Source of the DNA: an uncultured Candidatus Saccharibacteria bacterium
Lineage (GTDB): Bacteria > Patescibacteriota > Minisyncoccia > Phycocordibacterales > CAIRYW01
Reading direction: 5' to 3'
Length of the DNA: 64,000 bases
Assembly (NCBI GenBank): GCA_964406475.1
Contig: CAYORS010000001.1
Location: 35,881-99,880, forward strand
Part shown: positions 18,963 to 56,737 of the stretch, one piece after another
How the letters are laid out: the number at the start of each line of letters is the position of its first letter
Numbering within the stretch: position 1 is the stretch's first letter
Program-made: the position numbers and the translations under genes
Notes under the pieces: model-generated
What the model saw: the letters and a program-made list of their open reading frames with translations, nothing else
The model's database searches: none
What the model was told of the DNA's origin: nothing

Positions 18963-19910
18963 ATGAGTAAGCATACTCCAACAAGAAAAATTGGCTTTCT
19001 TGCTATTTGTGCATTTCTTGTCGTGGGGGCTATTATTGTTCAAAAATATAATTTTTTTAAACAAATCATACCCGCATCTCCAACTATCGTACTTAACCCT
19101 ATTGATGTTGTTGAAGAACCACAAAATGTCAACGTGTCGGGAATGGATACAGACGGAGATGGTCTACCTGATTGGCAAGAAATCATAAGTGGTACGGACA
19201 TCAAAAACGCAGATACTGATGGTGATGGGACTCCAGACGGCAAAGAAATTGAACTTGGAAGAGATCCTCTTGTCAAAGGGCCTAATGACCAGAACAATAC
19301 CAAAGCAACCACCACAGATGAAAAGGCAAAAACAATATCCCAAAGTGTCGCTCGAAACCTCTTTGCAAATGCGGTTTATCTCAGTAACACCGGATCAGTC
19401 AATGAGGAGAACAAAGCAGCACTTGTCGACAATTTGGTATCAGGCATACAAAACTCATTTACATATAATCAATATGATGCCCAAAAACTCCTTCTTATCA
19501 CAAACGAAAACGAAGAAACCTACAAATTCTATTCTTCTTCTTTTGCAACACTTCAAATAAGTATGCTTCTTCGAATGCAAAAAGAAGTAAACAAGCCAGA
19601 TTTTACCATTGGCAATTTGAGTCCTATCTACAAAAATCAGGCAGAAACCCTTTTTGCACTCAGAGTCCCAAAAGAACTTTTTGATATTCATCTGCAAATA
19701 GTGAATAATTACAGTAAGGCTGCAGCTGTATTTGAAGCAATCAGCAAAGAAAAAGAAGATCCTTTAAAACTTCCTTTTGCAATTAAGGTATACCAAGATA
19801 TTATGCTTGAGCAACCGTTTCTTATACGAAAGGTTGCACAATTCGTCAAAGATAATGGTATAATTTTTACAAGTAACGAAGTGGGAGGATATTGGAATGC
19901 TTTTGAATAA
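18963..19910 (+). CDS. Membrane-anchored hypothetical with two DTDGDG Ca-binding-like repeats; first gene of the T4SS-like cluster
   Basis: N-terminal TM. DTDGDGLPDWQE and DTDGDGTPDGKE motifs are thrombospondin type 3-like. Confidence 0.5.
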   Translation: MSKHTPTRKIGFLAICAFLVVGAIIVQKYNFFKQIIPASPTIVLNPIDVVEEPQNVNVSGMDTDGDGLPDWQEIISGTDIKNADTDGDGTPDGKEIELGRDPLVKGPNDQNNTKATTTDEKAKTISQSVARNLFANAVYLSNTGSVNEENKAALVDNLVSGIQNSFTYNQYDAQKLLLITNENEETYKFYSSSFATLQISMLLRMQKEVNKPDFTIGNLSPIYKNQAETLFALRVPKELFDIHLQIVNNYSKAAAVFEAISKEKEDPLKLPFAIKVYQDIMLEQPFLIRKVAQFVKDNGIIFTSNEVGGYWNAFE

Positions 19911-19912
19911 CA

Positions 19913-21103
19913 ATGTTATATAAAATGACAAAAAAAATAGCTGGTTTTTTTGCTCTCGCAATGATTTTTTTTGTTGTGATGACACCTATAGCATATGCAG
20001 CAAGCGATTCGAAGAGTAATAATGGAGAAGGTACTTCAGCAGAAAAATCAGTCCAATCAGCAGGAACTTGTTCGATAGGAGCAATACTTGGACGACTTAT
20101 CTCAAGTACAGTAGGTAAAGCAATGCAACAGCTCACATCATACCTGTCTTCTTTTATTACAAGTTTTTTCAAAGACAAAACAACCCAACAAACAAAAGAA
20201 TCTACCGCAACATATACAAAAGTCCCCATTATTGCAACAGAAACAAACGTTGAACTCACAAAACAAAAAAACGAACTTCGACAACTCACAGCCAAAGAGA
20301 CAGGTCAAGCAGGCGCAGATACAGACTCTCTTTTGAGTGGTTTTTTGAGCGGATTGAGCAATATTTCTCTCGACTCTATAATGTTTTGTGTTATCAACGA
20401 AATAATGACATATATCACCAACTCAACGATAGAGTGGATCAATAGCGGATTCAACGGTAGCCCTGTCTTTGTGGAGAACCCTCGTGCATATTTTGAAAAC
20501 ATAGCCAACAAAGAAACATCCAACTTCGTCCGTGAATTGCAAGGTGCACAATCACAAGTAACAAACGGAATTCGCAATGCTGCAACAAGTATTGCAGCAC
20601 CGCTCCGAGACCAAACAATCCAAACCGTTATCAACTCTTCAAATCTTTCTTTTGCAGATATTATAAAACCGACAATGAGTCAAGAGCTTACTCAAAACTA
20701 CCAATCTTTTGTGAATGGCGATCAGTGGCTTGGTATGGGATATCTCTCACAACTTTCAGAAGATCAGAACAACTATTATGGTGTGCAGACACTTACTCTT
20801 CAAGAAAACGCTCGTCGTATTGCAGTAGAACAACAAAACCAACAGCTCCAGCTTCAATACAATAATGGCTACAAATCTTTCACAGAGTGTCCCGAAGGTC
20901 ACAGTAGAGCAGATGGTTCTTGTGATCCTGCATATTCAAAGGCCACAGTCACAGGAAGCGAGATTAAAGACGAGCTTCAGTCTCGAGGTATGATGAAATA
21001 TATGCGAACAGCATTTGCGAATGACTTTGACTCTATCATTACAACCCTCATCAACCAACTCGTCAAAATCGCAGTGAACGAAGTCTTCCAATCATCGAAC
21101 TAA
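19913..21103 (+). CDS. Secreted hypothetical protein (signal peptide, S/T/Q-rich)
   Basis: MTKKIAGFFALAMIFFVVMTPIAYAASD signal sequence. Confidence 0.5.
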   Translation: MLYKMTKKIAGFFALAMIFFVVMTPIAYAASDSKSNNGEGTSAEKSVQSAGTCSIGAILGRLISSTVGKAMQQLTSYLSSFITSFFKDKTTQQTKESTATYTKVPIIATETNVELTKQKNELRQLTAKETGQAGADTDSLLSGFLSGLSNISLDSIMFCVINEIMTYITNSTIEWINSGFNGSPVFVENPRAYFENIANKETSNFVRELQGAQSQVTNGIRNAATSIAAPLRDQTIQTVINSSNLSFADIIKPTMSQELTQNYQSFVNGDQWLGMGYLSQLSEDQNNYYGVQTLTLQENARRIAVEQQNQQLQLQYNNGYKSFTECPEGHSRADGSCDPAYSKATVTGSEIKDELQSRGMMKYMRTAFANDFDSIITTLINQLVKIAVNEVFQSSN

Positions 21104-21143
21104 ACACTTTTAAGTTTACAATCTTCGGTGTATAATTTGAAAT

Positions 21144-23855
21144 GTGAAAAAGAGTTTTTTCTCTAGACTCAATAGTTTTTTTGCAAAACAGAAAAAAGAA
21201 ACTTCTTTTCTTTTTGGTTTGACTTTGTTTGTTGTGTTGAGTGTAACCTTGATTTGTCCTAAAGTGACATTTGCAGCTGGTGAGAGTACAAGTAATTTTG
21301 AAATGATCAAATATATTTATACAGCGGTCTCCTCTCTTGCAACAGGAGCTACAAATGTCGTTAGTACAGTTTATGAAAGTTTATTTGGTCCAGTGATTAC
21401 AAGCATTGCTTACGTTATATTGGGAATACTTTCTTACATTGTAGATGCAATTGGTATTATTTTTAACATTGTCATTAGCATCACGGTTATCAATATGAGT
21501 AGTCTCATAAATAAGATTGATATTATAAAAGCCGGATGGCAAGCTATTCGTGATCTTACAAATATTATCTTTATTTTTATGCTGCTTTATCTCGCTATTG
21601 CCACAATCCTTCAGCTTGATGAGCACGGGGTCAAACACGGATTAAGTAGACTTATTATAGGTGCGACACTTATCAACTTCAGTCTCTTTTTTGTCAAAGT
21701 CCCTATTGATGTATCCAATATTCTTGCGATTCAAATTTATAATAAGGTAAATCCCCCAAGTGACTCTACATTTGTAGGAGCCCTTTCAGGAAGAAAAGGC
21801 CTTGGAGATGCCTTTTTTCAAATGTTTAGTCCACAAAAAGTATTTAAAGATCCTCGATTAAGTAATTTATCAAGTAATGCAGGTCCAACAGGTTCACTTA
21901 GTGGAGATGTGTTAAGAACAAATCCACTGACAACATTTGTGATGGGTATTATTATTTTTTTGATTATCATTTTTATTTTCCTTGCTGTTATTATTATTTT
22001 TATAAAAAGGTTTATTGTACTTATGTTGCTTATGATTTTTTCTCCACTTGCCTTTGCAGGTATGGCAGTCCCAAGCCATGACATAGAGCATCAAATCACA
22101 TCAAGGTTTTGGAATACTCTTTTTAAAGAAGCTTTTTATGCACCAGTATTTATGTTCCTTATGTATCTTGCACTCAAAATGGGAACAGCCCTCAATACAA
22201 ATGTAATAAGAGAAGTGGATGCATCTTCAGGTATCGACAGACTCGTAACACTTCCTTTAAGTAATGTGATTGGTTTTTCTGTTGTGATTGGAATGATGGT
22301 TTTTGCTCTTACCGTATCAGAATCAATGGGTGTTGCAGGTGCATCAAATGCAGTCAATGCTTTTGGAATGATGCGTTCTAAGGCTACAGGTTTTATTGCA
22401 AGTAATACCGCAGGACGACTCGCTCACACTTGGGTCAATAAGGGAAACGGTGCAAACTTTACCATGGCAGCAGCTGGACTAAAAAACAGCTCAGGCACTG
22501 CACAAGGCAAGCTTGCAAACTTCCTTTCACGCAGTTCGCTTGGACGTAGTGTAGCCAAACAAGTCGCTGGCACAGCCCAAAACATAGGCAAAAAAGATTT
22601 TGGAGGAGGATTTTCTTATGATCATAAAATACACGAACGAGAAGAGGAATTTAAAGCTGCGCTTGAAGAGGCCCATAATGATCCAAAAATGCTTGCCGAG
22701 CTTATGGGTAAAGCACTTGGTGATGGAAACAAAAGATCTACCAGTCTTAAAGCAGCACATAGAATGTTTCATCATATGTCACTTGAGGAGAAAGCAAACC
22801 TTCAACTCAACCTTGATGAAAAAATAAAAGAAGGAGAAAAAACTGACAAAGATGGAAAACCTGTCAAACCAAAAGCAGAAATTGATGCACTAAAAGCCGC
22901 ACGTGCAAACCTTTTTGGTGGGGGAGAAAAACACGAACACGGACGACTCACCGAAAACGAAAGTGTTGGTATTGTGCGTGAAATCGCTGAAGGAACAGAT
23001 TACCATGCTAAAAAGTTTAGAGCCGCCATTGAAAGTGGCGATGCTTCTAGTGTGGGGCACTTTATCGAGAATGCAACAGAAGGGCAAATGAAAGTAGCCC
23101 TCAGGTCCCTTGGTGATATGGAAAATCTAAAAATGAAACCAGTCACTGCTGATACACCAAAAGAAAAAATAAAAGAATACGAAATCCATAACCAAAAAGT
23201 CCAAAACATAACCAACCAGATCACCAACGGTCTCAGTAAGTTTAGAGGGGAGAGCTTCCACGCAATGGTAGCCAAAGATACTGCACAAAGTGAAACAATC
23301 AAAGAAGTTGCATCGACAGCTGTGTTAAAGGGACAAAAACGCTACCAGGCATTTCAGGCTTTTTCAGGTAGTAATGAAAAAATTAACAAGGCCCTTGCCC
23401 TTGGGAATCCCAACCTCCGCCAGGGTTTTGCTGATGAATTGAGAGATCTTCCTCAAATGCGAGATCATATACAAAAATACGACGAGAGACAAAAGAACAT
23501 CGAAAAGGGTCTCGAAGAAAAACTCAAAACCGCCAGAGGAGATGCTGCCAAAGAAGCGCATTTCAAAGCTGAAGCAGAAAAAGAAAAAATCAAAGCCTTT
23601 GAAGAAGACGTGGTACAAAAATATGATGAGACGATGTCAGAATCTACAACATTTAAGTACGCGAAAAGTCCGAACGGAGAAAGAACCGTCATACAAACAA
23701 AAGAAATGAAAGAAGAGCTTGGAAACCAAGAAAAAATATTTAAAACACTCGAAGAAGAAACAAAAAAACAAAAAGAGGCAGCAGGTGGGGGAAATTGGTC
23801 ACAAAAAAATCCAATATTATTTGACGCATACGGTCAACCAATAAACACAAAATAA
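21144..23855 (+). CDS. VirB6/TrbL/TcpH-like polytopic membrane protein (903 aa; hydrophobic ~400-aa N-half, charged K/E-rich C-half)
   Basis: About 8 predicted TM helices in the first 400 aa, then a hydrophilic coiled-coil-like tail. Architecture and T4SS context only; no direct motif proof. Confidence 0.5.
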   Translation: MKKSFFSRLNSFFAKQKKETSFLFGLTLFVVLSVTLICPKVTFAAGESTSNFEMIKYIYTAVSSLATGATNVVSTVYESLFGPVITSIAYVILGILSYIVDAIGIIFNIVISITVINMSSLINKIDIIKAGWQAIRDLTNIIFIFMLLYLAIATILQLDEHGVKHGLSRLIIGATLINFSLFFVKVPIDVSNILAIQIYNKVNPPSDSTFVGALSGRKGLGDAFFQMFSPQKVFKDPRLSNLSSNAGPTGSLSGDVLRTNPLTTFVMGIIIFLIIIFIFLAVIIIFIKRFIVLMLLMIFSPLAFAGMAVPSHDIEHQITSRFWNTLFKEAFYAPVFMFLMYLALKMGTALNTNVIREVDASSGIDRLVTLPLSNVIGFSVVIGMMVFALTVSESMGVAGASNAVNAFGMMRSKATGFIASNTAGRLAHTWVNKGNGANFTMAAAGLKNSSGTAQGKLANFLSRSSLGRSVAKQVAGTAQNIGKKDFGGGFSYDHKIHEREEEFKAALEEAHNDPKMLAELMGKALGDGNKRSTSLKAAHRMFHHMSLEEKANLQLNLDEKIKEGEKTDKDGKPVKPKAEIDALKAARANLFGGGEKHEHGRLTENESVGIVREIAEGTDYHAKKFRAAIESGDASSVGHFIENATEGQMKVALRSLGDMENLKMKPVTADTPKEKIKEYEIHNQKVQNITNQITNGLSKFRGESFHAMVAKDTAQSETIKEVASTAVLKGQKRYQAFQAFSGSNEKINKALALGNPNLRQGFADELRDLPQMRDHIQKYDERQKNIEKGLEEKLKTARGDAAKEAHFKAEAEKEKIKAFEEDVVQKYDETMSESTTFKYAKSPNGERTVIQTKEMKEELGNQEKIFKTLEEETKKQKEAAGGGNWSQKNPILFDAYGQPINTK

Positions 23856-23856
23856 A

Positions 23857-24711
23857 ATGTCAAAATATAGCAACGAACAATACGTATCAATATTCAACAA
23901 GCTTCCTCCTGATATTAAGGATGTGGTCTTGTCTTATGCAACAGTGGATGCGCTTTGGGCAATAGGTAAGAGACACAACCTCCAAATCGACCAAACAGGC
24001 AAAATGATCGATATTACTTTTGATGTTGTGATGGGTATTGTCGCAACAAAAGATTTTGTCAAAGAACTGACCAACGAGCTCCACATATCTGCACTTGATG
24101 CTTTGGCTATTTCGCGTGATGTAGATGACACAATACTCCAGCCTATCAAACAAACCATGATCAAAACCTTTGGTGATAGCGCCCCTTACAAACCGTCAAG
24201 CAGTCTCGTTCAAGTATATGAAGATGAAGACGATCATCCGTCACTTCAAAAAGAAACAATCTTAAAAGAAATCGAGGAACCAGAAGCTCCAATCATCAAA
24301 AAAGAAATCGTCTACACACAATCCCCAGTACAAGTGGCGCAAGAAAAACCAAAACAACCCGAATCTCCCACATCACAAAAGACAGATCCTCTCCCTAGTG
24401 TCTACAAAGAAGAAATACAAAGCCCACAAAAAGAATCTGCACCCATAAAAGTCCCGAGCTTCCTCGAAAAAATAACCTCTTTAAAACTCTCTCAAAGCAT
24501 TGTGATGCCAAAAGAAGAATCCAGTGTTCAAACTATCATAGAAAAGGCACCTTCTGTTCCCACAAGTATTACCACATACCCTCCCGAAATTAAAGAGACC
24601 GGCAAACCTGAACCACAAAAACAACCACAAGTACAAAAAGACGCTCCAGAAGAACCTTCAAAACAACAAACACCACAATACTCAGTCGATCCGTATCGCG
24701 AACAAATATAA
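23857..24711 (+). CDS. Hypothetical protein with a P/Q/E/K-rich low-complexity C-terminal half (T4SS cluster)
   Basis: Composition read from the translation. Confidence 0.45.
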   Translation: MSKYSNEQYVSIFNKLPPDIKDVVLSYATVDALWAIGKRHNLQIDQTGKMIDITFDVVMGIVATKDFVKELTNELHISALDALAISRDVDDTILQPIKQTMIKTFGDSAPYKPSSSLVQVYEDEDDHPSLQKETILKEIEEPEAPIIKKEIVYTQSPVQVAQEKPKQPESPTSQKTDPLPSVYKEEIQSPQKESAPIKVPSFLEKITSLKLSQSIVMPKEESSVQTIIEKAPSVPTSITTYPPEIKETGKPEPQKQPQVQKDAPEEPSKQQTPQYSVDPYREQI

Positions 24712-24743
24712 AATACACGCCACCACAACCTTGGTGGTGTGTT

Positions 24744-25277
24744 TTGAAAGATGTGTTTGTGATATACTGTGTATGTAGTTTTTTCTATATGCAATATCAA
24801 GTACCACAATTTATTGAAATCGAAGACAAAATTTTTGGACCACTGACATTCAAACAGTTCGTCTATGTGACTGGTGGAGCAGGAATGTGCTTTCTTGCAT
24901 ACAAGTTTATCCCTATGCCTTTTTCTTTTTTCCTCATTATTCCTATTGGAGGGTTTTCTTTTGCACTTGCGTTTTACAAAGTGAACAATCGACCATTTAT
25001 TGATGCTGTAGAATCTGCTGTAAAATTCTTTTTGAGTACAAAGCTTTATCTTTGGGAAAAAAGAGACAAACCAAAAACTCCAGAAGAAATTGCCGAGCTT
25101 CCTAAAGGTGCAATCTATGTTCCAAAACTTTCAGAATCCAAACTCAAAGAGCTTACCTGGAGTCTTGATGTGAACGAAAACATCGATCTTACCAACGAAA
25201 CACACACACCACAAAAACAAAGCATCCTCAAAAACCCAAACCAAATTAAACAAAGTCAACATAATTTTTTAGAATAA
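24744..25277 (+). CDS. Small two-TM protein, VirB3/PrgI-like candidate, upstream of VirB4
   Basis: Two hydrophobic helices (GAGMCFLAYKFIPMPFSFFLIIPIGGFSFALAFY), size and position typical of VirB3-like proteins. Confidence 0.4.
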   Translation: MKDVFVIYCVCSFFYMQYQVPQFIEIEDKIFGPLTFKQFVYVTGGAGMCFLAYKFIPMPFSFFLIIPIGGFSFALAFYKVNNRPFIDAVESAVKFFLSTKLYLWEKRDKPKTPEEIAELPKGAIYVPKLSESKLKELTWSLDVNENIDLTNETHTPQKQSILKNPNQIKQSQHNFLE

Positions 25278-25278
25278 T

Positions 25279-25926
25279 ATGGCTATACCAGGCAAAAGTT
25301 CACAAGATTTTATCCCTATCAAAGAAATACGAGATGGTGTTGTTATTTTAAAAGACGGAAGTCTTCGAGGGGTTGTTTTGACATCTTCGGTCAACTTCGC
25401 ACTCAAAAGTGCAGACGAACAGAACGCAATCATCTATCAATTTCAGAACTTTTTGAACTCTATCAATTTTTCTATTCAGATATTTAGCCAGTCACGACGT
25501 CTTGATATACGCCCTTATATCGCACTCCTCGAAAAGGTTCAAAAAGAACAAGAAATTGAGCTTTTAAGAGTTCAGACCAAAGAATATATTGAGTTTATCA
25601 AGACATTTACATCGAGTGTGAACATTATGAAGAAATCCTTCTTCATTGTAGTGTCTTACACACCAGCACTTCTTCAAAAGGGGACTGCGGGTGGATTCTT
25701 TTCTTTCTTTGGAGGAGGTAAAACTTCATCAAAAGAGAAAAACGATAATTTTGAAGAAAATCGCACACAACTTTTGCAAAGAATGGAGGTTGTAATGTCA
25801 GGTCTTACACGAATGGGGGTAAAAGCGGTTCCTCTTGGAACAGAGGAGCTGGTGGAGCTTTATTATAAATTGTTCAATCCAGGAGATACAGAAAAGCCTA
25901 TCAACATAGACAAAATTGGACAATAA
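25279..25926 (+). CDS. T4SS-associated soluble protein; candidate detached N-terminal domain of VirB4
   Basis: No TM. DFIPIKEIRDGVVILKDGSLRGVVL...resembles VirB4 N-terminal segments. 215 aa plus the downstream 606 aa gives ~820 aa, the canonical VirB4 length. The two ORFs are in different frames, 38 nt apart. Confidence 0.4.
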   Translation: MAIPGKSSQDFIPIKEIRDGVVILKDGSLRGVVLTSSVNFALKSADEQNAIIYQFQNFLNSINFSIQIFSQSRRLDIRPYIALLEKVQKEQEIELLRVQTKEYIEFIKTFTSSVNIMKKSFFIVVSYTPALLQKGTAGGFFSFFGGGKTSSKEKNDNFEENRTQLLQRMEVVMSGLTRMGVKAVPLGTEELVELYYKLFNPGDTEKPINIDKIGQ

Positions 25927-25964
25927 ATTATCGTTTCGAAACAAATTAGATTATAATATTTACA

Positions 25965-27785
25965 ATGGGAATACTTGATTCAATCTTAGGCAGAAGCAAA
26001 AATACCGATACACAAGCGGTAACAGCTATTTTGCCACAAGAAATTTATGAAAGTGGAGTTTTGGAACTCAAAGACGTGATTGCACCAAGTGCTTTGAAGG
26101 TATCTCCTCGAGAACTCAACCTTGGCGACAAGATCGCGCGAACTTTTTTTGTGATTTCTTATCCTCGTTTTCTTACTGAAAGCTGGTTTGCGCAAATCAT
26201 TAACCTTGATCGGATTTTTGATATTTCGATTTTTATTCACCCTATGGATACAGCACAGGTTCTTCGCCAATTCCAAAAAAAGGTTGCTGAAGTACAAAGC
26301 CAAATCGCAAATAGAGAGGAGAGGGGGCTTGTACGTGATCCTGTACTCGACACTGCATATCAGGACCTTGAACAGCTTCGTGACCAACTCCAACAAGCAC
26401 AAGAAAGAATATTCGAAGTCGGACTTTATATTACAATCTACGGTAGTACTATTGAAGAACTCGATAAAGTAGAGTCAGAAGTTAAATCCATCCTTGAAGC
26501 AAAGCTTGTATATGTGAAGCCTGCACTTTTCCAACAAGAACAAGGGTTCCGTAGTGTTTTGCCTATTGGTAATGATGAGCTCGAGGTCCATTCTAAACTC
26601 AACTCAAGTCCTCTGTCGAGTATCTTTCCTTTCATTTCTTTTGACCTTACATCTGACAAAGGGATTCTTTATGGTGTAAACAGACACAACTCTTCACTTG
26701 TACTTTTTGATCGTTTCTCACTCGAAAACTACAATTCCGTCACATTCGCAAAAGCCGGAGCAGGAAAAAGTTTTGCCACAAAACTAGAGATCCTTCGATC
26801 ACTTATGTTTGATACTGATGTGATTGTTATTGACCCTGAAAGAGAATATGAATATCTCGCAGAAGCAACAGGGGGGCGATATTTTAATATTTCTCTTACA
26901 TCAGAACACCACATAAACCCTTTTGATCTTCCAACACCGCGAGAAGACGAATCAGCAGGAGATGTGCTTCGTTCAAACATCATTAACCTCGTAGGACTCT
27001 TTCGTCTTATGCTTGGAGGACTCACTCCAGAAGAAGATGCTATTGTTGATCAAGCAATCACAGAAACATACGCCCTCAAAGACATTACTGCGGATGCGGA
27101 TTTTACCAACGCAGAACCTCCTTTGTTGTCTGACTTTGAGCTTGTGCTGTCTGGTATGACAGGAGCAGAATCTCTTGTTCAAAGACTCGAAAAGTATACA
27201 AAAGGAACGTGGGCAGGATTTATCAACCGACCATCAAACGTTGATATCAATAAAAAATTCGTTACCTTTTCTCTTCGAGATATGGAAGACGAGCTCAAAC
27301 CTGTGGCAATGTATATTGTGATGCACTATATCTGGAATGCTATTCGTGAGAAGCTCAAAAAAAGACTTCTTGTGATTGATGAGGCATGGTGGATGATGAA
27401 ATCAGAAGACACAGCATCATTCCTTCTTGGTCTTGCAAAACGAGGAAGAAAATACTATCTCGGACTTGCAACAATTACTCAGGACGTTGAGGACTTCCTC
27501 AAATCACCTTATGGAACACCGATTATTACCAACTCATCAATCCAGATGCTTCTCAAACAATCTCCATCATCTGTCGATATGCTCCAAAAAACTTTCAACC
27601 TTACTGATGAAGAAAAATATCTTTTGCTCGAATCTGAAGTGGGAGAGGGAATTTTCTTTGCGGGATTAAAACACGTTGCGATAAAAATCATAGCCTCATA
27701 TACCGAAGAACAAATCATCACCTCAAACCCATCTCAGGTTCTTGCCATTCGTGCAGCAAAGAAAGCACAAGAAGAGCAAATATAA
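25965..27785 (+). CDS. virB4: VirB4/TrbE/CagE-family T4SS ATPase
   Basis: Walker A FAKAGAGKSF, Walker B LLVIDEAWWMM, ISYPR...SWFAQII N-terminal pattern of the VirB4 family. Confidence 0.8.
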   Translation: MGILDSILGRSKNTDTQAVTAILPQEIYESGVLELKDVIAPSALKVSPRELNLGDKIARTFFVISYPRFLTESWFAQIINLDRIFDISIFIHPMDTAQVLRQFQKKVAEVQSQIANREERGLVRDPVLDTAYQDLEQLRDQLQQAQERIFEVGLYITIYGSTIEELDKVESEVKSILEAKLVYVKPALFQQEQGFRSVLPIGNDELEVHSKLNSSPLSSIFPFISFDLTSDKGILYGVNRHNSSLVLFDRFSLENYNSVTFAKAGAGKSFATKLEILRSLMFDTDVIVIDPEREYEYLAEATGGRYFNISLTSEHHINPFDLPTPREDESAGDVLRSNIINLVGLFRLMLGGLTPEEDAIVDQAITETYALKDITADADFTNAEPPLLSDFELVLSGMTGAESLVQRLEKYTKGTWAGFINRPSNVDINKKFVTFSLRDMEDELKPVAMYIVMHYIWNAIREKLKKRLLVIDEAWWMMKSEDTASFLLGLAKRGRKYYLGLATITQDVEDFLKSPYGTPIITNSSIQMLLKQSPSSVDMLQKTFNLTDEEKYLLLESEVGEGIFFAGLKHVAIKIIASYTEEQIITSNPSQVLAIRAAKKAQEEQI

Positions 27786-27789
27786 ACAT

Positions 27790-28476
27790 ATGAAAATAAT
27801 AAGTTTTATTCTTGATATTCTTCCTTTTTTAGGAGGAATAAAAATGATGATTGAAGCAGGGTTCAAAAAGGACCTTGTAGGTAACGAACTAAATGGCAAA
27901 CTACGTAAAATCCATTTTTTTATTGGACTTATTACACTTATCTTTGATTGTTTCACGCTCGAAGGAGGTGGTATCACACGAGGTCTTATAAAGCTTTTGG
28001 GAGAAGGATTTTTGAAACGACTCGCCGAGACAGGAGCAGAAAAAGCTGCCGAAAAAACTTTGGCCAAAAAAGTATTGCAAGGTACTGTGCGCACAATTGA
28101 AAAAGCTGAAGAAAGTAGGGTGGGTAAGTATGTGGTAAAAAAAGCCGAAGATAAAATTAGAGACAAGGTAAAAGAAGCTGTCACTGATGTAGAAGATTAT
28201 CGGCGTAATCCCGAAAAAAGAAAAGAGCTCCAAGAAAAATACGGACAAACAGAAAGAGATAAAAAAGAAATCCGCCGAAGAGTTATTGAACTACAAAAAC
28301 ACCACAAAAAAGTAGAAGAAGAAAATAAGGAAGAAGTGAGTAACACAGATCTCGACTATATAAGACAAGCTGTGGAGACAAAAGCAACAAATTCTATTTT
28401 TAATAGACCGCGAATTCTTCAACAAAAAAAATCTGTGCGTGATACAATAATAGAAAGACAAAAAAAGTCAAAGTAA
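27790..28476 (+). CDS. Hypothetical N-terminally anchored K/E-rich coiled-coil protein (T4SS cluster)
   Basis: TM then charged repeats. Start moved to the Met after the virB4 stop. Confidence 0.45.
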   Translation: MKIISFILDILPFLGGIKMMIEAGFKKDLVGNELNGKLRKIHFFIGLITLIFDCFTLEGGGITRGLIKLLGEGFLKRLAETGAEKAAEKTLAKKVLQGTVRTIEKAEESRVGKYVVKKAEDKIRDKVKEAVTDVEDYRRNPEKRKELQEKYGQTERDKKEIRRRVIELQKHHKKVEEENKEEVSNTDLDYIRQAVETKATNSIFNRPRILQQKKSVRDTIIERQKKSK

Positions 28477-29531
28477 TGTCATATCTACAGTCACAAAAAA
28501 ACATACTCTTTCTAGGATTTTTGGTTTTTGCTTGTGGCTGCATATTCTCACATCAACAAGTTTTTGGTGCAACAGACACCCTTCCTATACCGACAGAAAT
28601 AGACGATCTCGAAGAGCAAGTAAGCACACGAATAACTCCAAAATACCCTCGCCCTGGAGAAGATGTGACAATTACTCTTGAGGCATACGGCACAGATCTT
28701 AATGCAGCAAACATTATATGGTCAGTAAACGACATAATATTCAAACAAGGAAAAGGTGAAAAGCAGTTTAAAATAAATGCCGGCACATCAGGACAACAAA
28801 CCAATGTGTCTGTTACAATCGAACCTCGAAACGGCAAACCTATTATCAAAAATTTTGTTATCAACCCGCAAACTGTTGATATTTTGTGGGAAGCAGATAC
28901 CTATACACCACCATTTTATAAAGGCAAATCAATGTTTACACCTGAAGATACGATTACCTTTGTAGCAATGCCAAACATAAATAATGAACAACCTGATCCA
29001 AAAACACTTTCATACAAATGGATAGAAAACCAAGAAGTCCAAGGAAGCAAATCTGGTTATGGGCAAAACACCTTCAAGCACACAGGAGGCATTCTTATGA
29101 AACCCGTCGAAATAAATGTGGAAGCCTCAACAGAAGGGGGACAAAAAGCTTTTAATACTATTTTTCTTCGATCTATATTCCCTGAGGTCAATCTCTATGA
29201 AGACCATCCGTTATATGGTTTCTTGTTTAATAAAGAAATAAGCGGTGTTTTTCCTTTTGGCGAAAGAGAGGAGGGTACAATTGCGGCGTTTCCGTTTTTT
29301 TTGAGTACATTAAACAGAATAACAAAAAGCATTGTTTACAATTGGACTGTCAATTATAATAAAGTCATAGGTCAGAGCAACAAAAACGAACTCACCCTTC
29401 GTAATACAGAAAATACAGAAGGAAAGTCTTATGTATCTGTTGAAGTGAGAAATAGTGATATTTTTCTACAGAAAGGTGAAACAAACACATATGTTGACTT
29501 CAAGAAAATCAAAAAAATAATAGGTCTCTAA
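28476..29531 (+). CDS. Secreted hypothetical protein (signal peptide)
   Basis: MSYLQSQKNILFLGFLVFACGCIFSHQQVFGA signal-like N-terminus. Confidence 0.5.
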   Translation: MSYLQSQKNILFLGFLVFACGCIFSHQQVFGATDTLPIPTEIDDLEEQVSTRITPKYPRPGEDVTITLEAYGTDLNAANIIWSVNDIIFKQGKGEKQFKINAGTSGQQTNVSVTIEPRNGKPIIKNFVINPQTVDILWEADTYTPPFYKGKSMFTPEDTITFVAMPNINNEQPDPKTLSYKWIENQEVQGSKSGYGQNTFKHTGGILMKPVEINVEASTEGGQKAFNTIFLRSIFPEVNLYEDHPLYGFLFNKEISGVFPFGEREEGTIAAFPFFLSTLNRITKSIVYNWTVNYNKVIGQSNKNELTLRNTENTEGKSYVSVEVRNSDIFLQKGETNTYVDFKKIKKIIGL

Positions 29532-29532
29532 A

Positions 29533-30396
29533 ATGAAAAAATTTTTAATTTTATTTTTTATAACATACAGTGTTGTCATAATCCCCTATTTTTCTTTTGG
29601 AGATAATGGAAAGTACACACCTCTCGCTCCAATACCAGGACTTTCAGATAATGTCGCCCCTATTGATACAGAAAACGGACTCAGTATTTATGTCAACCAG
29701 CTTTATACGTGGGGTGTTGCGCTCGCATCAGGCCTTGCTGTTATGATGATTATTTGGGGAGGAGTGGGATATGTCACAAGCGCAGGAGGTGGAGGAATAG
29801 AAGAAGCTAAAGGCCGTATAAATGCAGCTATTTTAGGACTTCTTCTTGCTCTTGGGTCATATCTTATACTCAAAACAATAAACCCGGAGCTTTTGAAAAC
29901 AACATTTGACTTGGCGACAATCACAGTAAATACCACAACTCAAAATGGTAATGGAGGTAACGGTGGTTTTGGTGGTACAAACCCCACAACAGGAACCATA
30001 ACTGGTGATTATGCATTTCTAAATCAAGTAAACAATGATCCAAACGGAGACCAAATACTTTTTACTGCCTATGGATATGCAGGGGACACCTCTTATGATC
30101 AAAATAGTGCGGAAGGAAGAGGAAACAATGATAATCAATTGACCGAAGGTTCTGTTGCACTTTCTCCTGATCTTATTTCAAAACTGAACCCTTCACCTGG
30201 TGCATCTGTTTTTGTAAACGGTGTGCACGTTGGATATTACGATGATAGCACTTCTCCAGATCTCACAAACCGTGTTGACTTTTATAATCCATCAGGAAGT
30301 TTGGGGGGGAATAATTTTTCAAAACCAGTAACAGGAACAGTCACAGTTGACAACAGTAGCGTCCGACCCCAAAAACCCAACCCTTCAAAGAAATAA
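29533..30396 (+). CDS. VirB2/TrbC-like conjugative pilin candidate with a long G/N/T-rich C-terminal extension
   Basis: Signal peptide, then two hydrophobic helices (GVALASGLAVMMIIWGGVGYV... and AAILGLLLALGSYLILKTINPEL) in pilin-like arrangement. Then ~170 aa of low-complexity NGNGGNGGFGGT... sequence. Confidence 0.5.
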   Translation: MKKFLILFFITYSVVIIPYFSFGDNGKYTPLAPIPGLSDNVAPIDTENGLSIYVNQLYTWGVALASGLAVMMIIWGGVGYVTSAGGGGIEEAKGRINAAILGLLLALGSYLILKTINPELLKTTFDLATITVNTTTQNGNGGNGGFGGTNPTTGTITGDYAFLNQVNNDPNGDQILFTAYGYAGDTSYDQNSAEGRGNNDNQLTEGSVALSPDLISKLNPSPGASVFVNGVHVGYYDDSTSPDLTNRVDFYNPSGSLGGNNFSKPVTGTVTVDNSSVRPQKPNPSKK

Positions 30397-30436
30397 ACCT
30401 ATACGATAGATATGAGATAATATATAATAAATAGTA

Positions 30437-31807
30437 ATGAAGAAGTTTATTCTATTTATATTAGGTATTATTGTTGCGTTTTTTGCGTTTATAGTGATTC
30501 GTGCTTTTTGGAATAACTCTCACACCAAAAATCCTCAAAACACTCTTACTGTGCTCAAAAATGTTTTACCCTTTTCGCCATCAGAATTTTTGGGTTCCAA
30601 AAATCCGCCTACTGGACAACAGACTAATACAAGCACAGATACTCCACCTCTTTTTATTGATGCAAGTAGTACAGAACAAAGTAGTAATGTTTCCATTATT
30701 CCTCGTATGCGTCATTACACACTTGTACCTACAGCAGGTCAAATAGTTTTGGAAAAGAACAAGGATGTGATTCGAGATAGAGTAAAAGTAAAAGAAAAAG
30801 GTTATTATGTCCGTTATGTGGATAGGGGAACAGGACACATCTTTGAAATCAAAACCGATGCACCAAACTCAACCAAAATATCAAACACTACAATACCAAA
30901 AATATACGAGGCATTTTTCTTACCAAGCGGTAATAGCCTTGTTACACGATTCCTTGATAACAGTGAACAAATCGTCACATATCTTATTGATTTGAAAGAT
31001 AAAATTGCAACATCGACACAAAAAACAGCATCAACAACAAATACGGTTGAGGCCCAGGCTCTTGCAGAAAAACAAACACTGAAAGATGTGAAGGGTGTGT
31101 ACCTGCCTATTGGTATTGACCAAATTTCACTTTCAGCAGGAGGAAAGATTGCCGAGCTTACAAAAGAAAACGAACAAGGTGTTTTGTCTCTTCTTGATAC
31201 ATCGCGTAAACCAAAAATTATGACAACCTCACCTCTTCGAGAATGGCTTATTAATTTCCAAGGTGAAAACCAAATAGTTCTTACAACAAAACCTTCAGGG
31301 CTTTTTGAAGGGTATTCATATGTTTTTGATATCAACACAAGTGGTCTCAAAAAAATCACTGGGGGTATTTTGGGGCTAACTATATTACCCAGTTTTGACA
31401 ATTCAACATACCTTATAGGAGAAGGAGGAGAGAATACCAAACTTTCAATTCTATCCAAAAAAGATAACAAATCAACATCACTTAGTATTCGAGGACTACC
31501 TGAAAAGTGTGTTTGGTCACGGAAAAATGTAACAATCTTATATTGTGCCGCACCAAACAATGTTAAAAACTCACTCTATCCAGACAATTGGTATAAAGGG
31601 AAAATATTTTTTGATGATTCTTTGTGGCAAATTGATACAAAAACAGGAAATATGAAAATACTCTCAAACTTTTCAACAGAGAGTGGGCAAGCTATTGATG
31701 CAATCAATATGGTATTATCTCCAGACGAAACATATGTCACATTTATAAACAAAATAGACCTAACCCTTTGGGGATTAGATCTTTCAAAAACCCCACAAAC
31801 TAACTAG
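30437..31807 (+). CDS. N-terminally anchored large extracytoplasmic hypothetical protein (last gene of the T4SS-like cluster)
   Basis: Single N-terminal TM. No motif recognised. Confidence 0.5.
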   Translation: MKKFILFILGIIVAFFAFIVIRAFWNNSHTKNPQNTLTVLKNVLPFSPSEFLGSKNPPTGQQTNTSTDTPPLFIDASSTEQSSNVSIIPRMRHYTLVPTAGQIVLEKNKDVIRDRVKVKEKGYYVRYVDRGTGHIFEIKTDAPNSTKISNTTIPKIYEAFFLPSGNSLVTRFLDNSEQIVTYLIDLKDKIATSTQKTASTTNTVEAQALAEKQTLKDVKGVYLPIGIDQISLSAGGKIAELTKENEQGVLSLLDTSRKPKIMTTSPLREWLINFQGENQIVLTTKPSGLFEGYSYVFDINTSGLKKITGGILGLTILPSFDNSTYLIGEGGENTKLSILSKKDNKSTSLSIRGLPEKCVWSRKNVTILYCAAPNNVKNSLYPDNWYKGKIFFDDSLWQIDTKTGNMKILSNFSTESGQAIDAINMVLSPDETYVTFINKIDLTLWGLDLSKTPQTN

Positions 31808-32262
31808 TCTTCTTTTTCTTTCAAGAAACGAATAATGAGACGACGATCTTTTCCTTCACCTACAGATTCTGTTTTGACATAAGGAGAACTCTCAAGGTGA
31901 CTGTGTACAACCATTCTTTCATATGAAGACATAGGTTCAAGTTCAACATCAATCTTAAAAGCACGAGCTCTTTCAGCCATCATTGTTGCTTTATTTTTGA
32001 GATAGTTTTCTCGATCTTTTCTTGTATTGTTAATATCAACAATCACCCTCTTTTCTTCACCATATTTTTTTGAAACAATTTTTTTTACAAGGTGTACAAA
32101 TGCTTCGAAGCGCTCGTTTTCTCGTCCTTGAAGGAATTTTTGTTCTGGAATACTTATTGCAAGCAAAAAACTATCTTTTTCAAGAGATATATCAACAACA
32201 AAATCACTTATCCCAATATGGGATATGAGAGTTTCTGTTATTTTTTTTATATCTTCTATCAT
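31804..32262 (-). CDS. jag: Jag-like KH/R3H RNA-binding protein
   Basis: R3H motif LEPMSSYERMVVHSHL. Position downstream of yidC. Confidence 0.75.
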   Translation of the reverse strand: MIEDIKKITETLISHIGISDFVVDISLEKDSFLLAISIPEQKFLQGRENERFEAFVHLVKKIVSKKYGEEKRVIVDINNTRKDRENYLKNKATMMAERARAFKIDVELEPMSSYERMVVHSHLESSPYVKTESVGEGKDRRLIIRFLKEKED

Positions 32263-32298: not shown

Positions 32299-33009
32299 TT
32301 ATTTTGACTTCATTGACTTTTGAACATATATCTCCTGAAAGACAGTGAAGATGTTACGCACGGTCCAATAAAGGGGAAGTGCTCCTGGGAGATTTGTCGC
32401 AATAAGACCAACAACAAAAGGAAGTACGTACTTTATTTGCATCTGCATTGAGTGGGCGAATTCCTCTTGAATTGTTTTCTTTTTGTTCGGATCTATTTTT
32501 TGTATCTTCAGAGACATAATATGGGCTTGGATGTATTGAGTTACTCCAGCAAAAACTGCTAAAACAACACTCTTTTTACCAATATCTACAATACCCAAAA
32601 AAATCATATTGACAGTATCTGGATTTTTTACAAAAGAATACAAATACTCAGTATGAATAGTAGGTAATCCACGGAAGAAAACATAGTAGAGTGCAATCAA
32701 AATAGGAAACTGAATAAGCATAAGAAAAATAATGGAAAATGGGTTGATTTTGTATTTTTTATACAAATCCATTGTTTGTCGGGCTTGTTCTGTAGGATCT
32801 TTTGTCTTTTCTTTTATTGCCTTAAGCTCTGGCTCGATCTCTTTGAGAACTATTTGGGTTCTAATAGACTTTTTGGAAATAGAAAAAAGTATAATACTTA
32901 CAATAAGTGTAAGTAAAACAACTGCAATTCCTGCATCATGATTAGGAATAATATCAATAATATAAACAAGTCCATTGTAAAGCGGTTTGTAAAACAATGT
33001 ATTAAACAT
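32299..33009 (-). CDS. yidC: Membrane protein insertase YidC (short Gram-positive/CPR form)
   Basis: 236 aa. Conserved ...TEQARQTMDLYKKYKINPFS...LIQFPILIALYYV region. Confidence 0.8.
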   Translation of the reverse strand: MFNTLFYKPLYNGLVYIIDIIPNHDAGIAVVLLTLIVSIILFSISKKSIRTQIVLKEIEPELKAIKEKTKDPTEQARQTMDLYKKYKINPFSIIFLMLIQFPILIALYYVFFRGLPTIHTEYLYSFVKNPDTVNMIFLGIVDIGKKSVVLAVFAGVTQYIQAHIMSLKIQKIDPNKKKTIQEEFAHSMQMQIKYVLPFVVGLIATNLPGALPLYWTVRNIFTVFQEIYVQKSMKSK

Positions 33010-33052: not shown

Positions 33053-33373
33053 TTATATTTGTTCTAAAATATCCTTAATAGAGGGGATAAGGTCTTTAGT
33101 TTTTAGTTTTTCACACCCACTTTTTATATAAAAAACAGCAAAAATACCCTTTTTTTGATCAAAAGACCTTAAAGCTTCTTTAAAAATGCGCTTTACACGA
33201 TGTCTTGTGACACTTAATCGATAATCTCTCTTGCTTAAAATACAGGCATATTTAAAAGAGTTTGTGTCATTTTTAAGGTATTTAACATTGAAAAATAAGG
33301 AGTTTTTTGAACTCCTTATTTTTGAAATTTGACCAATCTCTTCTCGATTAAGTTGTTTTTTTCGAGAAAGCAT
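33053..33373 (-). CDS. rnpA: Ribonuclease P protein component
   Basis: RNR motif region VTRHRVKRIFKEALR. Located between rpmH and yidC. Confidence 0.75.
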   Translation of the reverse strand: MLSRKKQLNREEIGQISKIRSSKNSLFFNVKYLKNDTNSFKYACILSKRDYRLSVTRHRVKRIFKEALRSFDQKKGIFAVFYIKSGCEKLKTKDLIPSIKDILEQI

Positions 33374-33379: not shown

Positions 33380-33517
33380 CTAGACCGTAGTAACCTTTTT
33401 TCGTCCTTTTCTTATTCTACGGAGAATCACTCTTTTACCATAAGAAGTTTTACTCCTTGCAAGGAATCCATGAACCTTTGCTCGCTTTTTCTTTTTAGGT
33501 TGATATGTAACTGACAT
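33380..33517 (-). CDS. rpmH: 50S ribosomal protein L34
   Basis: [45 protein letters not shown]. Start verified codon by codon at 33515-33517. Confidence 0.85.
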
Positions 33518-33652
33518 ACTTTGTAATATATCATTGTGTGTGTTTTTTGACAAGAAGGGGACTATTTTTTGAGTTTTCCACATCTTATCAACACACTTAT
33601 TCAATGTTTTCTAGTTTTCCTGTTTTTGTGTGGTTGTATAATATACCTACTT
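33518..33652. promoter_or_regulatory. oriC-proximal rpmH-dnaA intergenic region with DnaA-box variants and the dnaA promoter
   Basis: TTTTCCACA at 33574-33582 and TTATCAACA at 33585-33593. TATAAT at 33637-33642, about 10 nt upstream of the dnaA ATG. Confidence 0.5.
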
Positions 33653-43545: not shown

Positions 43546-43627
43546 AGGTATAGTATAAATGACAAAACAAAAAGTAGAAAGAGTGCACATTCTTTGCACT
43601 TTATTGTTTTTGTCTTATACTTCGCCT

Positions 43628-56025: not shown

Positions 56026-56054
56026 CTTATTTCTCATTCTGACTAACATTTTAT

Positions 56055-56705: not shown

Positions 56706-56737
56706 TTGGTTTATCCAATATCGGTTTTTTTATTCTT

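Follow-up and report, generated by a model that had tools for sequence, protein, structure and literature searches.

A cluster of T4SS-like genes located next to dnaA raises the question of whether it is a conjugative element or a resident machine of the chromosome, and of what such a machine would transport. In the window, i.e. the whole 64-kb stretch of DNA analysed, the cluster comprises eleven ORFs (g1 to g11), which are all on the plus strand and tightly spaced, with gaps or overlaps of 1–40 nt (Table 1). The evidence makes it highly probable that this locus is the core chromosomal, non-conjugative T4SS of Paceibacteria, belonging to a Patescibacteria-specific lineage that descends from the MPF-FATA conjugation machinery of monoderms.

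Table 1. Coordinates of the T4SS cluster (18963–31807) and of the other features discussed, numbered within the window.
Feature	Coordinates	Strand	Description or basis
Tyrosine recombinase	4451–5365		XerC/D-type
comM	12016–13572		ComM homologue
g1	18963–19910	+	N-terminally anchored or secreted; bacterial TSP3 Ca-binding repeats and C-terminal domain of ~200 aa
g2	19913–21103	+	Secreted or anchored; mostly helical; Cys-containing
g3	21144–23855	+	Polytopic membrane protein, extended VirB6-like
g4	23857–24711	+	No TM segments; conserved N-terminal ~110 aa; tail rich in Pro/Glu/Lys/Gln
Hairpin	24721–24739		Terminator-like, 3′ of g4
g5	24744–25277	+	Small PrgI/VirB3-like membrane protein; hydrophobic hairpin
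g6	25279–25926	+	215 aa; TrsD-like, separately encoded VirB4 N-terminal domain
g7	25965–27785	+	VirB4-family ATPase; middle and C-terminal P-loop domains
g8	27742–28476	+	Small; two TM segments; highly charged C-terminal tail
g9	28476–29531	+	N-terminal anchor; three ~100-aa repeats, probably Ig-like beta-sandwich
g10	29533–30396	+	VirB2-like T4SS pilin core (~residues 28–118) and ~170-aa C-terminal extension
g11	30437–31807	+	N-terminal anchor; TolB-like beta-propeller
jag (R3H)	31804–32262	-	Pfam R3H
yidC	32299–33009	-	Pfam 60KD_IMP
rnpA	33053–33373	-	Pfam Ribonuclease_P
rpmH	33380–33517	-	Translation read
dnaA	33569–35008	+	Pfam match
dnaN	35210–36310	+	Pfam match
PilB-like ATPase	41842–43599		
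Serine recombinase	61639–62145		Fragment

The ATPase encoded by g7 carries the Walker A ‘AGAGKS’ and Walker B ‘LLVIDEAW’ motifs. Its best VirB4 profile matches were the NCBIfam model conju_CD1110 (383.7 bits, cut-off 325; model positions 181–732 aligned) and the mycoplasma ICE model (251.8 bits); it also matched P-loop_TraG (E = 1.8e-25) and, in the PDB, the VirB4 entry 4AG5 (E = 4.4e-41) and TrwK (E = 3e-7). The product of g5, whose true start codon may lie downstream of the listed TTG, belongs to the PrgI family (PF12666; E = 5.8e-9, 36.8 bits, cut-off 27) and has its hydrophobic stretch at residues 48–80. Gene g6 was not listed as a component of its own in the preliminary description. It matched the N-terminal parts of four NCBIfam models, each below the curated cut-off: VirB4_plasma (positions 103–234, E = 1e-11), TrsD (positions 15–143, E = 5.5e-6), CD1110 (positions 2–120) and TIGR00929 (positions 7–178). 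In all 79 related loci, g6 and g7 are likewise split into two ORFs. The g3 protein has six predicted TM segments within approximately residues 1–440, and its remaining C-terminal part, of about 460 aa, is hydrophilic and coiled-coil-like; the window protein had no direct Pfam match, and it is assigned as VirB6-like from its family members and predicted fold. g4 had no hydrophobic segment and no match in family profile searches, and neither a VirB8-like nor a VirB1-like component was identified among the cluster genes. As predicted from these similarities, the cytoplasmic-membrane translocon is composed of VirB4 (g7), the TrsD-like N-domain (g6), the PrgI/VirB3 anchor (g5) and the extended VirB6 (g3).

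The window g10 protein matched the T4SS_pilin family (PF18895) below the cut-off (E = 3e-4; 21.3 against 26.6 bits), and 54 of its 59 syntenic orthologues matched the same family (best E = 2.4e-10), three matching TrbC/VirB2. Its core consists of a signal peptide and two hydrophobic helices. The C-terminal extension, which ranges from 9 to 293 aa in the orthologues (median 184), had no sequence match in the PDB, and in some orthologues hydrolase domains are fused to the pilin. Through the PF18895 orthologues g10 is assigned as a VirB2-like pilin, the pilus itself being putative.

A single N-terminal hydrophobic segment is present in each of g1, g2, g9 and g11, and two in g8. The g1 protein matched the TSP3_bac family (PF18884; E = 2.3e-7, 31 bits, gathering cut-off 25), and the orthologues of g2 end in variable lectin or Ig-like domains; a role of g2 as an adhesin or a VirB5-like protein is speculation only. 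In g9, Trp 82, 182 and 290 each sit within a repeated ‘W..NG’-type motif; W182 and W290 are invariant and W82 is found in at least 90% of the sequences. Weak Ig-type matches among g9 orthologues (BiPBP_C in 11/73, Ig_3 in 4 and PKD_3 in 2) and a match of the g9 profile to Hoc in the PDB (E = 4e-4) suggest that the repeats are probably Ig-like beta-sandwich domains. The g11 orthologue profile matched TolB of several species in the PDB (E = 1.2e-4 to 1e-3) across the propeller blades, and g11 has two nearly invariant Cys. g8, which likely starts at an ATG at about 27787, had no match in family profile searches. The TolB-like propeller (g11), the Ig-like protein (g9), the TSP3-repeat protein (g1) and the helical Cys-containing protein (g2) form a co-inherited extracytoplasmic set. 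The preliminary description had named eleven co-directional genes, among them those for an anchored Ca-binding-repeat protein, a VirB3-like protein, a VirB4 with Walker A and B motifs, a 903-aa VirB6/TcpH-like protein and a VirB2-like pilin; these assignments hold, including that of the pilin, for which unrelatedness to VirB2 had been considered.

On the origin side, the neighbours are jag, yidC, rnpA, rpmH and dnaA as previously described, and the reported spacing of 0 nt has to be corrected, since the stop codons of the convergent g11 and jag overlap by 4 nt. DnaA-box-like sites with one mismatch to TTATCCACA occur at 33574, 33585, 35023, 35050 and 35174 and probably mark the oriC region; the cumulative GC skew has its minimum at about 31–34 kb. 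For g7, at least 591 of the candidate stretches from GTDB species genomes proved to be relatives, and the best 80 related species genomes by VirB4 similarity (78–91% identical) were used for comparison. Nearly every one of these loci with enough flank presents the order uvrD-ksgA-cluster-(jag)-yidC-dnaA-dnaN-PBP1A; dnaA was found in 51 of the 53 loci with sufficient flank on its side, and for ksgA the count was 49 of 54. Genes g3, g5, g6, g7, g9 and g11 were found in all 43 full-span loci, g1 in 23 and g4 in 21. This near-invariant order across 80 related species indicates that the cluster is a core locus with vertical inheritance and no mobile element; its position is fixed between ksgA and jag-yidC-rnpA-rpmH/dnaA. 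The source organism belongs with the Paceibacteria/Parcubacteria and is not one of the Saccharibacteria.

In the same genomes, the median identity of VirB4 was 80%, against 57% for DnaA, 54% for UvrD and 43% for DnaN, a contrast that is inflated by the choice of the 80 loci as the top matches by VirB4 similarity. The values were 59% for g6 and 51% for g5, and the extracytoplasmic parts were 26–37% identical (g1 about 26%). A homologue of g8 was detected by tblastn in just 2 of 80 loci, the others having a gap of similar size between virB4 and g9; this slot is hypervariable. Such a gradient, from the motor through housekeeping proteins to extracytoplasmic proteins, is expected for a conserved machine with a fast-adapting host interface.

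The VirB4, PrgI and TrsD families also occur in ICEs and plasmids of Firmicutes and mycoplasmas, and a tyrosine recombinase gene lies 13.6 kb upstream, as might be seen if an integrated conjugative element, or its decayed remnant, were located near dnaA by chance. However, this recombinase is XerC/D-like, and the genes for PNPase, ComM, PcrA and KsgA intervene before the cluster. No integrase was found beside the cluster, whose G+C content (0.35–0.40) is like that of its flanks, with no compositional break at the borders. Neither VirD4/T4CP nor relaxase families were matched by any ORF of at least 120 aa in the window, and none was found among the called genes in the 9 kb past its right end. 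Thus, the reported lack of VirD4 and relaxase stands, also for the surroundings of the cluster, while the reported lack of integrase genes does not extend to recombinases, two of which are in the window, neither flanking the cluster. The absence of a coupling protein is a finding for the window; a VirD4-like protein may be encoded elsewhere in the genome, as VirD4-like genes are present in most Patescibacteria genomes, mostly distant from virB4 (PMC12102498), and DNA transfer is in that respect conceivable. A conjugative element is contradicted by the lack of relaxase and T4CP in the window and in the 9 kb to its right, by the uniform composition, by the gene order and housekeeping context shared with about 50 other species and by a conservation of VirB4 exceeding that of DnaA, and is very improbable. 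The earlier proposal of a chromosomal CPR T4SS, made against a conjugative element, is supported by this synteny.

Among known systems, the Patescibacteria-clade T4SS in its Paceibacteria arrangement (Quinonero-Coronel et al. 2025, PMC12102498) presents no essential difference from this locus. That study places the Patescibacteria VirB4 clade within MPF-FATA, with TrsD, PrgI, VirB6 and VirB2-like pilins and nearly without relaxases, and locates the system of Paceibacteria near dnaA, dnaN, rnpA, ksgA and rpmH. The locus described here shares VirB4, TrsD, PrgI/VirB3, VirB6 and the PF18895 pilin, the adjacency of the TrsD homologue to VirB4, the lack of relaxase and T4CP beside virB4, and the same neighbours. 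In Southlakia epibionticum ML1, of the class Saccharimonadia unlike the present organism, the published description of the T4SS (SEML1_0006–0019; Wang et al. 2023, PMC10633639) is likewise of a chromosomal system similar to the Gram-positive type, with pilin genes and no recognisable coupling protein or relaxase, and the low locus-tag numbers suggest a location near the genome start there too. On the other hand, six divergent pilins are arrayed in that locus, instead of one pilin gene with a C-terminal extension, and peptidase and lysozyme genes directly downstream of virB4, which are not found here.

The MPF-FATA conjugative T4SSs of monoderms (pCF10 Prg, pGO1 Trs, the Clostridioides CTn CD1110-type and mycoplasma ICE) resemble the cluster in their VirB4 profiles, the PrgI-family protein, the separate TrsD-like protein, as in pGO1, and the absence of the outer-membrane core proteins VirB7, VirB9 and VirB10. 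The cluster differs in lacking a relaxase, a T4CP, a VirB8-like protein (PrgL) and a recognisable VirB1-like hydrolase, in having a VirB2-like pilin, absent from Gram-positive systems, and in being chromosomally fixed, not mobile. With the MPF-T systems (R388 Trw and Agrobacterium VirB), it shares the alignment of g7 to TrwK/VirB4 residues 290–735 and a TrbC/VirB2-related pilin, but the envelope is monoderm, VirB5, VirB7, VirB8, VirB9, VirB10, VirB11 and VirD4 are missing, and VirB6 bears the long hydrophilic extension, as in ‘extended VirB6’ proteins and TcpH.

A T4SS lacking relaxase and T4CP could also operate in reverse, as Helicobacter ComB and archaeal Ced, which are known DNA importers without these proteins (PMC12857230, a review covering the Patescibacteria T4SS). 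DNA from the host or the environment, or another nucleic acid, would then be a nucleotide source for an organism unable to make them. A ComM homologue and a PilB-like ATPase are encoded in the window, and a 2026 preprint reports a Patescibacteria parasite feeding on host RNA, with tubules at the host interface that are possibly T4SS pili (10.64898/2026.06.21.733656). The partial match of g7 to the CedB model (E = 2.9e-9), however, covers only about 70 P-loop residues (36 bits, cut-off 700), and the diderm-type ComB parts VirB8, VirB9 and VirB10 had no match in family profile searches, where no membrane protein of the cluster matched a family of this kind. Moreover, Tn-seq showed that S. epibionticum cannot grow epibiotically without its T4SS genes and pilin array (PMC10633639), while deletion of comEC, as the review relays from that study, abolished competence and left viability intact. 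As relayed, these results indicate that the essential role in that species is not ComEC-dependent DNA uptake. A nucleic-acid import machine is unlikely here.

It is also rather improbable that the cluster encodes a surface organelle only, i.e. a VirB4/VirB6/VirB2 pilus for host attachment or envelope maintenance through which nothing is translocated. Conjugative pili are mainly attachment organelles (PMC12857230), and adhesin-type modules are abundant in the TSP3 and Ig-like repeats, the propeller and the lectin/Ig domains of g2 orthologues. Nevertheless, type IV pili already serve adhesion in Patescibacteria (PMC12857230), a PilB-like ATPase is encoded in the window, and conservation of the full VirB3/VirB4/VirB6 translocon seems beyond the need of a pilus alone.

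The T4SS and its near-origin location were already described between 2023 and 2025, and our reading of a resident chromosomal T4SS repeats PMC12102498 and PMC10633639. The main text of PMC12102498 does not mention the co-conserved TolB-like propeller, three-repeat Ig-like and TSP3-repeat proteins, the variable pilin-fused domains or the constant direction of the operon, which points to oriC. Small additions of this work are the constant presence of the propeller and Ig-like proteins, the strong conservation of VirB4 relative to DnaA, and the pilin orthologues with hydrolase fusions. In the proposed mechanism, VirB4, TrsD and VirB3 would supply the energy for building a VirB2-type pilus or conduit, with VirB6 as its platform. 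This structure would span the monoderm envelope and reach the host cell that the ultrasmall bacterium relies on, and the fast-evolving surface proteins may provide host-specific contact and passage through the cell wall. As the locus lacks a relaxase and a coupling protein, DNA conjugation is unlikely, and the cargo would most likely be proteins or other macromolecules moved between symbiont and host; alternatively, the system may be an essential structure for attachment or feeding.

The eleven genes of the cluster, g1 to g11, all lie on the + strand and are tightly packed, with gaps or overlaps of 1–40 nt, in agreement with the preliminary description. On the origin side they are followed by jag (encoding an R3H protein), yidC, rnpA and rpmH on the − strand, and then by dnaA and dnaN on the + strand. 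These neighbours are as first described, and only the spacing of 0 nt needs correction, since the stop codons of g11 and jag overlap by 4 nt. To the left of the cluster are genes for CCA-adding enzyme, exonuclease III, a XerC/D-type recombinase, an NYN protein, PNPase, ComM, an M23/LysM peptidase, PcrA/UvrD and KsgA; to the right are those for PBP1A, RuvC, YebC, RuvB, a PilB-like ATPase, TsaE, PolA, HolA, Fpg and RuvA. The window ORFs of at least 120 aa outside the cluster that have a Pfam match are mostly housekeeping genes.

Positions of the features discussed (window coordinates, or those of a related locus or contig where its name precedes the position)
Feature	Position	Strand	Description
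T4SS cluster, g1–g11	18963-31807	+	eleven ORFs
g6	25279-25926	+	215 aa; aligns with the N-terminal region of four VirB4/TrsD models
g8	27742-28476	+	between virB4 and g9; small two-TM protein, very charged tail
Hairpin	24721-24739		between g4 and g5, which are 32 nt apart
rpmH	33380-33517	−	origin-side neighbour
Presumed oriC	33400-35200		
XerC/D-type recombinase	4451-5365		left of cluster
ORF 3′ of the recombinase	5375-5824	+	149 aa
PilB/GspE-type ATPase	41842-43599	−	T2SSE, E 4.5e-117; between RuvB and TsaE
tRNA	48757-48832	−	most likely tRNA-Lys
Variable island	~53400-64000		after the housekeeping genes
Fic protein	53486-54634		island
Multicopper oxidase	58202-59866		island
Serine-recombinase fragment	61639-62145		island
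8xMP membrane protein	63326-63946		island
Continuation of the island	L083:10820-19211		beyond the right end of the window
g10 orthologue with subtilase	L042:13293-15035		Peptidase_S8 at residues 52-250, N-terminal of pilin core 357-414
g10 orthologue with VanY	L061:12870-14111		VanY C-terminal of the pilin-core-aligned region; PF18895 unmatched at E 0.001
g10 orthologue with NlpC/P60	L004:13757-14839		NlpC/P60 C-terminal of the pilin-core-aligned region; PF18895 unmatched at E 0.001

The motor is encoded by g5, g6 and g7. The g7 product is VirB4: it matches the NCBIfam model conju_CD1110 with 383.7 bits (cut-off 325) over model positions 181-732, Pfam P-loop_TraG with E 1.8e-25 and, in the PDB, VirB4 4AG5 (E 4.4e-41) and TrwK (E 3e-7), and its translation contains Walker A (AGAGKS) and Walker B (LLVIDEAW) motifs. 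The top-scoring curated models are those of VirB4 from Firmicutes and mycoplasma ICEs (NCBIfam). The g6 product, to which the preliminary description gave no interpretation, aligns with positions 103-234 of VirB4_plasma (E 1e-11), 2-120 of CD1110, 15-143 of TrsD and 7-178 of TIGR00929; these matches, from E 1e-11 to 2e-5, are all far under the curated full-length cut-offs and thus indicate homology, not equivalog status. Because g6 covers the N-terminal part of the models and g7 starts at position 181 of CD1110, VirB4 is encoded as two pieces. The two are distinct ORFs in all 79 related loci compared, which excludes a frameshift. The virB4 gene is therefore accompanied by a TrsD homologue resembling the VirB4 N-domain, as in the T4SS of the Patescibacteria clade. 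Two genes upstream of virB4, g5 encodes a hydrophobic hairpin protein of the PrgI/VirB3 family (PF12666, 36.8 bits, cut-off 27).

The 903-aa product of g3 has no direct match in Pfam or NCBIfam. Several lines of evidence place this polytopic membrane protein, with six segments predicted from hydrophobicity, in the VirB6 family, as had been proposed. TrbL/VirB6 is matched by 9 of 60 syntenic orthologues, and the database homologues P0003 (36% identical, E 1.5e-46) and P0054 reach 31-32 bits, over the VirB6 family cut-off of 25.9. Residues 1-470 were modelled with AlphaFold2 (pLDDT 78.3, pTM 0.72), and the VirB6 identity was recovered by fold comparison only; profiles of the orthologue alignments of g3, g10 and g2 searched against PDB sequences gave nothing beyond coiled-coil noise. 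Like extended VirB6 proteins, g3 has a hydrophilic C-terminal part, here about 460 aa long.

ORF g10, also near virB4, encodes the VirB2-like pilin, with three hydrophobic segments. The window protein itself scores 21.3 bits against PF18895, under the cut-off of 26.6; the assignment is borne out by its orthologues, 54 of 59 of which match PF18895 (best E 2.4e-10, several over the cut-off), while three match TrbC/VirB2. With both families supported by orthologues, the possibility that g3 and g10 are unrelated to VirB6 and VirB2 is rejected. In the g10 orthologues the pilin core measures about 90 aa and is extended C-terminally by 9-293 aa. A subtilase, a VanY and an NlpC/P60 domain are each fused to a g10 orthologue in a single species, and other orthologues match CHAP, 3D and M15_4. 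These fusions, extra domains and variable extensions suggest that pilin subunits can carry modules for wall degradation or for binding. For the window protein, a 3D/DPBB-type cell-wall domain in the C-terminal extension was suspected, and neither the PDB sequence search nor Pfam supported it.

The remaining genes encode surface and accessory proteins. The product of g1 carries bacterial TSP3 calcium-binding repeats (31 bits, cut-off 25) and an N-terminal hydrophobic segment, and so corresponds to the anchored calcium-binding-repeat protein previously noted. By hydrophobicity, g1, g2, g9 and g11 have one N-terminal anchor or signal peptide each. ORF g9 encodes three repeats of about 100 aa with a conserved Trp in each (82, 182 and 290) and weak Ig-type matches; the g11 orthologue profile matches TolB beta-propellers (E 1.2e-4); and g4 encodes a protein with a low-complexity tail and no TM segment. 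A homologue of g8 was found by tblastn in two of the 80 related loci, the others keeping a gap of similar size between virB4 and g9, and g8 seems to be a hypervariable part of an operon that is conserved in other respects. Within the cluster, nothing resembling VirB8 or VirB1 was recognised. The gap between g4 and g5 contains a perfect, G+C-rich hairpin of 6 bp, flanked by T-rich sequence on both strands; it may split the cluster into the transcription units g1–g4 and g5–g11.

When GTDB genomes, one for each species, were scanned with g7, at least 591 candidate stretches were confirmed to be relatives. The best 80 of these, which were kept, are 78-91% identical and all come from Patescibacteria MAGs, labelled Taylorbacteria, Zambryskibacteria, Kaiserbacteria, Adlerbacteria, Campbellbacteria, Paceibacterota or Parcubacteria, with the generic label ‘Saccharibacteria’ in the MAGs of one submitter. 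Comparison of the window proteins with these 80 loci by tblastn revealed a near-universal order, uvrD-ksgA-[g1..g11]-(jag)-yidC-dnaA-dnaN-PBP1A. Of the 53 loci that extend 8.5 kb or more downstream of virB4, 51 contain dnaA; of the 54 that extend 9.5 kb or more upstream of it, 49 contain ksgA. In the window, too, virB4 is close to dnaA, dnaN, rnpA, rpmH and ksgA, the context known from Paceibacteria.

Among the 43 full-span loci, which reach from ksgA to yidC, g3, g5, g6, g7, g9 and g11 are present in all 43, g2 in 37, g10 in 36, g1 in 23, g4 in 21 and g8 in two. Median identities are 80% for VirB4, 59% for the TrsD-like protein and 51% for PrgI, compared with 57% for DnaA, 54% for UvrD, 43% for DnaN and 26-37% for the extracytoplasmic g1, g2, g3, g9, g10 and g11; the contrast between VirB4 and the others is exaggerated by the ranking of the loci on VirB4 similarity. 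The fixed gene order and these identities indicate that the locus is vertically inherited and its motor under very strong constraint. As judged from sequence comparison, the surface parts of the T4SS diverge fast and the motor is extremely conserved.

In a Pfam scan of all window ORFs of at least 120 aa, no match to a T4CP, T4SS-DNA_transf/TraG-D or relaxase family was obtained, and neither a T4CP nor a relaxase occurs in the 9 kb beyond the right end. The reported lack of a relaxase and a coupling protein thus stands; virB4 has neither beside it, again as in the Patescibacteria clade, and the window lacks the pair of MOB relaxase and type IV coupling protein that marks a conjugative element. 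An integrase had also been described as absent, which is true of the cluster flanks and not of the window, where the XerC/D-type recombinase and the serine-recombinase fragment are found. The synteny from ksgA to yidC is fixed in the 43 full-span loci, there is no G+C break, and the nearest recombinase, the XerC/D-like one, is 13.6 kb away. A mobile conjugative element, a reading to which we give hardly any credence, is contradicted by the evidence and was rejected on synteny and gene content.

The cumulative GC skew has its minimum at about 31-34 kb, and five of the 29 DnaA boxes with one mismatch in the window fall between 33574 and 35174; both agree with an origin at rpmH/dnaA/dnaN, the sole guides to its position being GC skew, weak DnaA boxes and the dnaA and dnaN genes. 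The T4SS operon and most genes of the 3.9–31.8 kb region are transcribed toward this presumed oriC, and the operon is thus head-on to the fork leaving the origin leftwards. Its orientation relative to dnaA is identical in every related locus.

Other features were observed in the window. Directly 3′ of the XerC/D-like recombinase, a small ORF without a Pfam match encodes a protein with a Pro/Glu/His-rich N-terminal half, one hydrophobic segment and the tail GGGGGGGGHSGGHSGGDHGHGGHH; the product may bind metal. The PilB/GspE-type ATPase gene, with no other pilus genes alongside, probably serves the type IV pili by which Patescibacteria also contact their hosts. A tRNA called by ARAGORN as a suppressor (‘Stop, anticodon TTA’) was rejected as such: its anticodon loop reads CUUUUAA, the same as that of E. 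coli tRNA-Lys(UUU), and the shifted register is explained by a G-A mismatch atop the anticodon stem; an ordinary tRNA-Lys is most likely. For the variable island, the gene calls of L083, which reaches past the right end of the window, add a CsoR-like repressor and a Tsi6-like gene in the same stretch. Just outside the window follow a ThsB-type TIR protein, an S24 peptidase, a second serine recombinase and a copper P-type ATPase operon. The island has the appearance of an integrated element for defence and metal resistance, with no relation to the T4SS.

In 3,035 Patescibacteria genomes, Quinonero-Coronel et al. (2025; PMC12102498) found that the VirB4 proteins of Patescibacteria form a monophyletic clade inside MPF-FATA, with TrsD as the commonest companion of virB4, together with PrgI/VirB3, VirB6 and VirB2-like pilins including PF18895. 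Relaxases were almost absent and T4CP genes seldom near virB4. In Paceibacteria, virB4 was close to dnaA, dnaN, rnpA, ksgA and rpmH, with higher gene dosage as the suggested effect, an idea that leaves the orientation of the operon unaddressed. Epibiotic growth of Southlakia epibionticum was shown by Tn-seq to require a homologous cluster and its pilins, in which a coupling protein and a relaxase are unrecognisable (Wang et al. 2023; PMC10633639). These results are summed up in a 2025 review (PMC12857230), which also states that comEC deletion ends competence and leaves viability unaffected. No T4SS before that of Patescibacteria had been shown to be essential for its bearer's growth (PMC10633639, PMC12857230). 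In addition, a 2026 preprint (10.64898/2026.06.21.733656) describes tubular structures, possibly T4SS pili, at the parasite-host interface.

Gene content, conserved synteny and these published systems agree that the cluster is a chromosomal CPR T4SS-like system and not a conjugative plasmid; as the same system appears in PMC12102498 and PMC10633639, the preliminary finding is correct and already published. The feature is genuine, well delimited and part of a described system. The new points are modest: the conservation gradient, the presence of g9 and g11 in all full-span loci and the fusion, now and then, of a pilin with a hydrolase domain. Neither the pilin fusions nor the propeller, Ig-like and TSP3 proteins feature in the main text of PMC12102498.

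Directly established here are the gene content, the homologies, the predicted fold, the conserved synteny and the lack of nearby conjugation genes. In the mechanism that we propose, VirB4, TrsD and VirB3 would energise the building of a filament or conduit of the VirB2 type, which would stand on a VirB6 platform and cross the monoderm envelope, and the fast-evolving anchored proteins would serve host contact and wall passage. The T4SS would pass proteins or other macromolecules, or act as an essential attachment or feeding device. On the other hand, the cluster could be a machine for importing DNA or RNA, which we consider unlikely: against DNA-import systems of the ComB/Ced type, CedB scores 36 bits (cut-off 700) through the P-loop only, and VirB8, VirB9 and VirB10 of the ComB core have no match among the cluster ORFs in Pfam and NCBIfam. 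An organelle serving adhesion only seems somewhat less probable still.

The TolB-like propeller (g11) and the three-repeat Ig-like protein (g9) are co-inherited with VirB4 and VirB6 in every full-span locus; the helical Cys-containing protein (g2) is detected less consistently. It is conceivable, though improbable, that the Paceibacteria system goes beyond a stripped-down Gram-positive T4SS, these proteins being a lineage-specific extracytoplasmic module that makes up, with a pilin whose domains can be swapped (subtilase, VanY and NlpC/P60 among them in some species), a new type of host-piercing or feeding conduit, in which pilus subunits would display wall-degrading or host-binding domains.

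Patescibacteria make up a large part of bacterial diversity and are obligate epibionts. The window provides a further clean and complete example of the Paceibacteria T4SS arrangement. The conservation map opens no new question; with its extremely conserved motor, fast-evolving surface, hypervariable g8, and g9 and g11 present in every full-span locus, it could steer the choice of structural and genetic targets.
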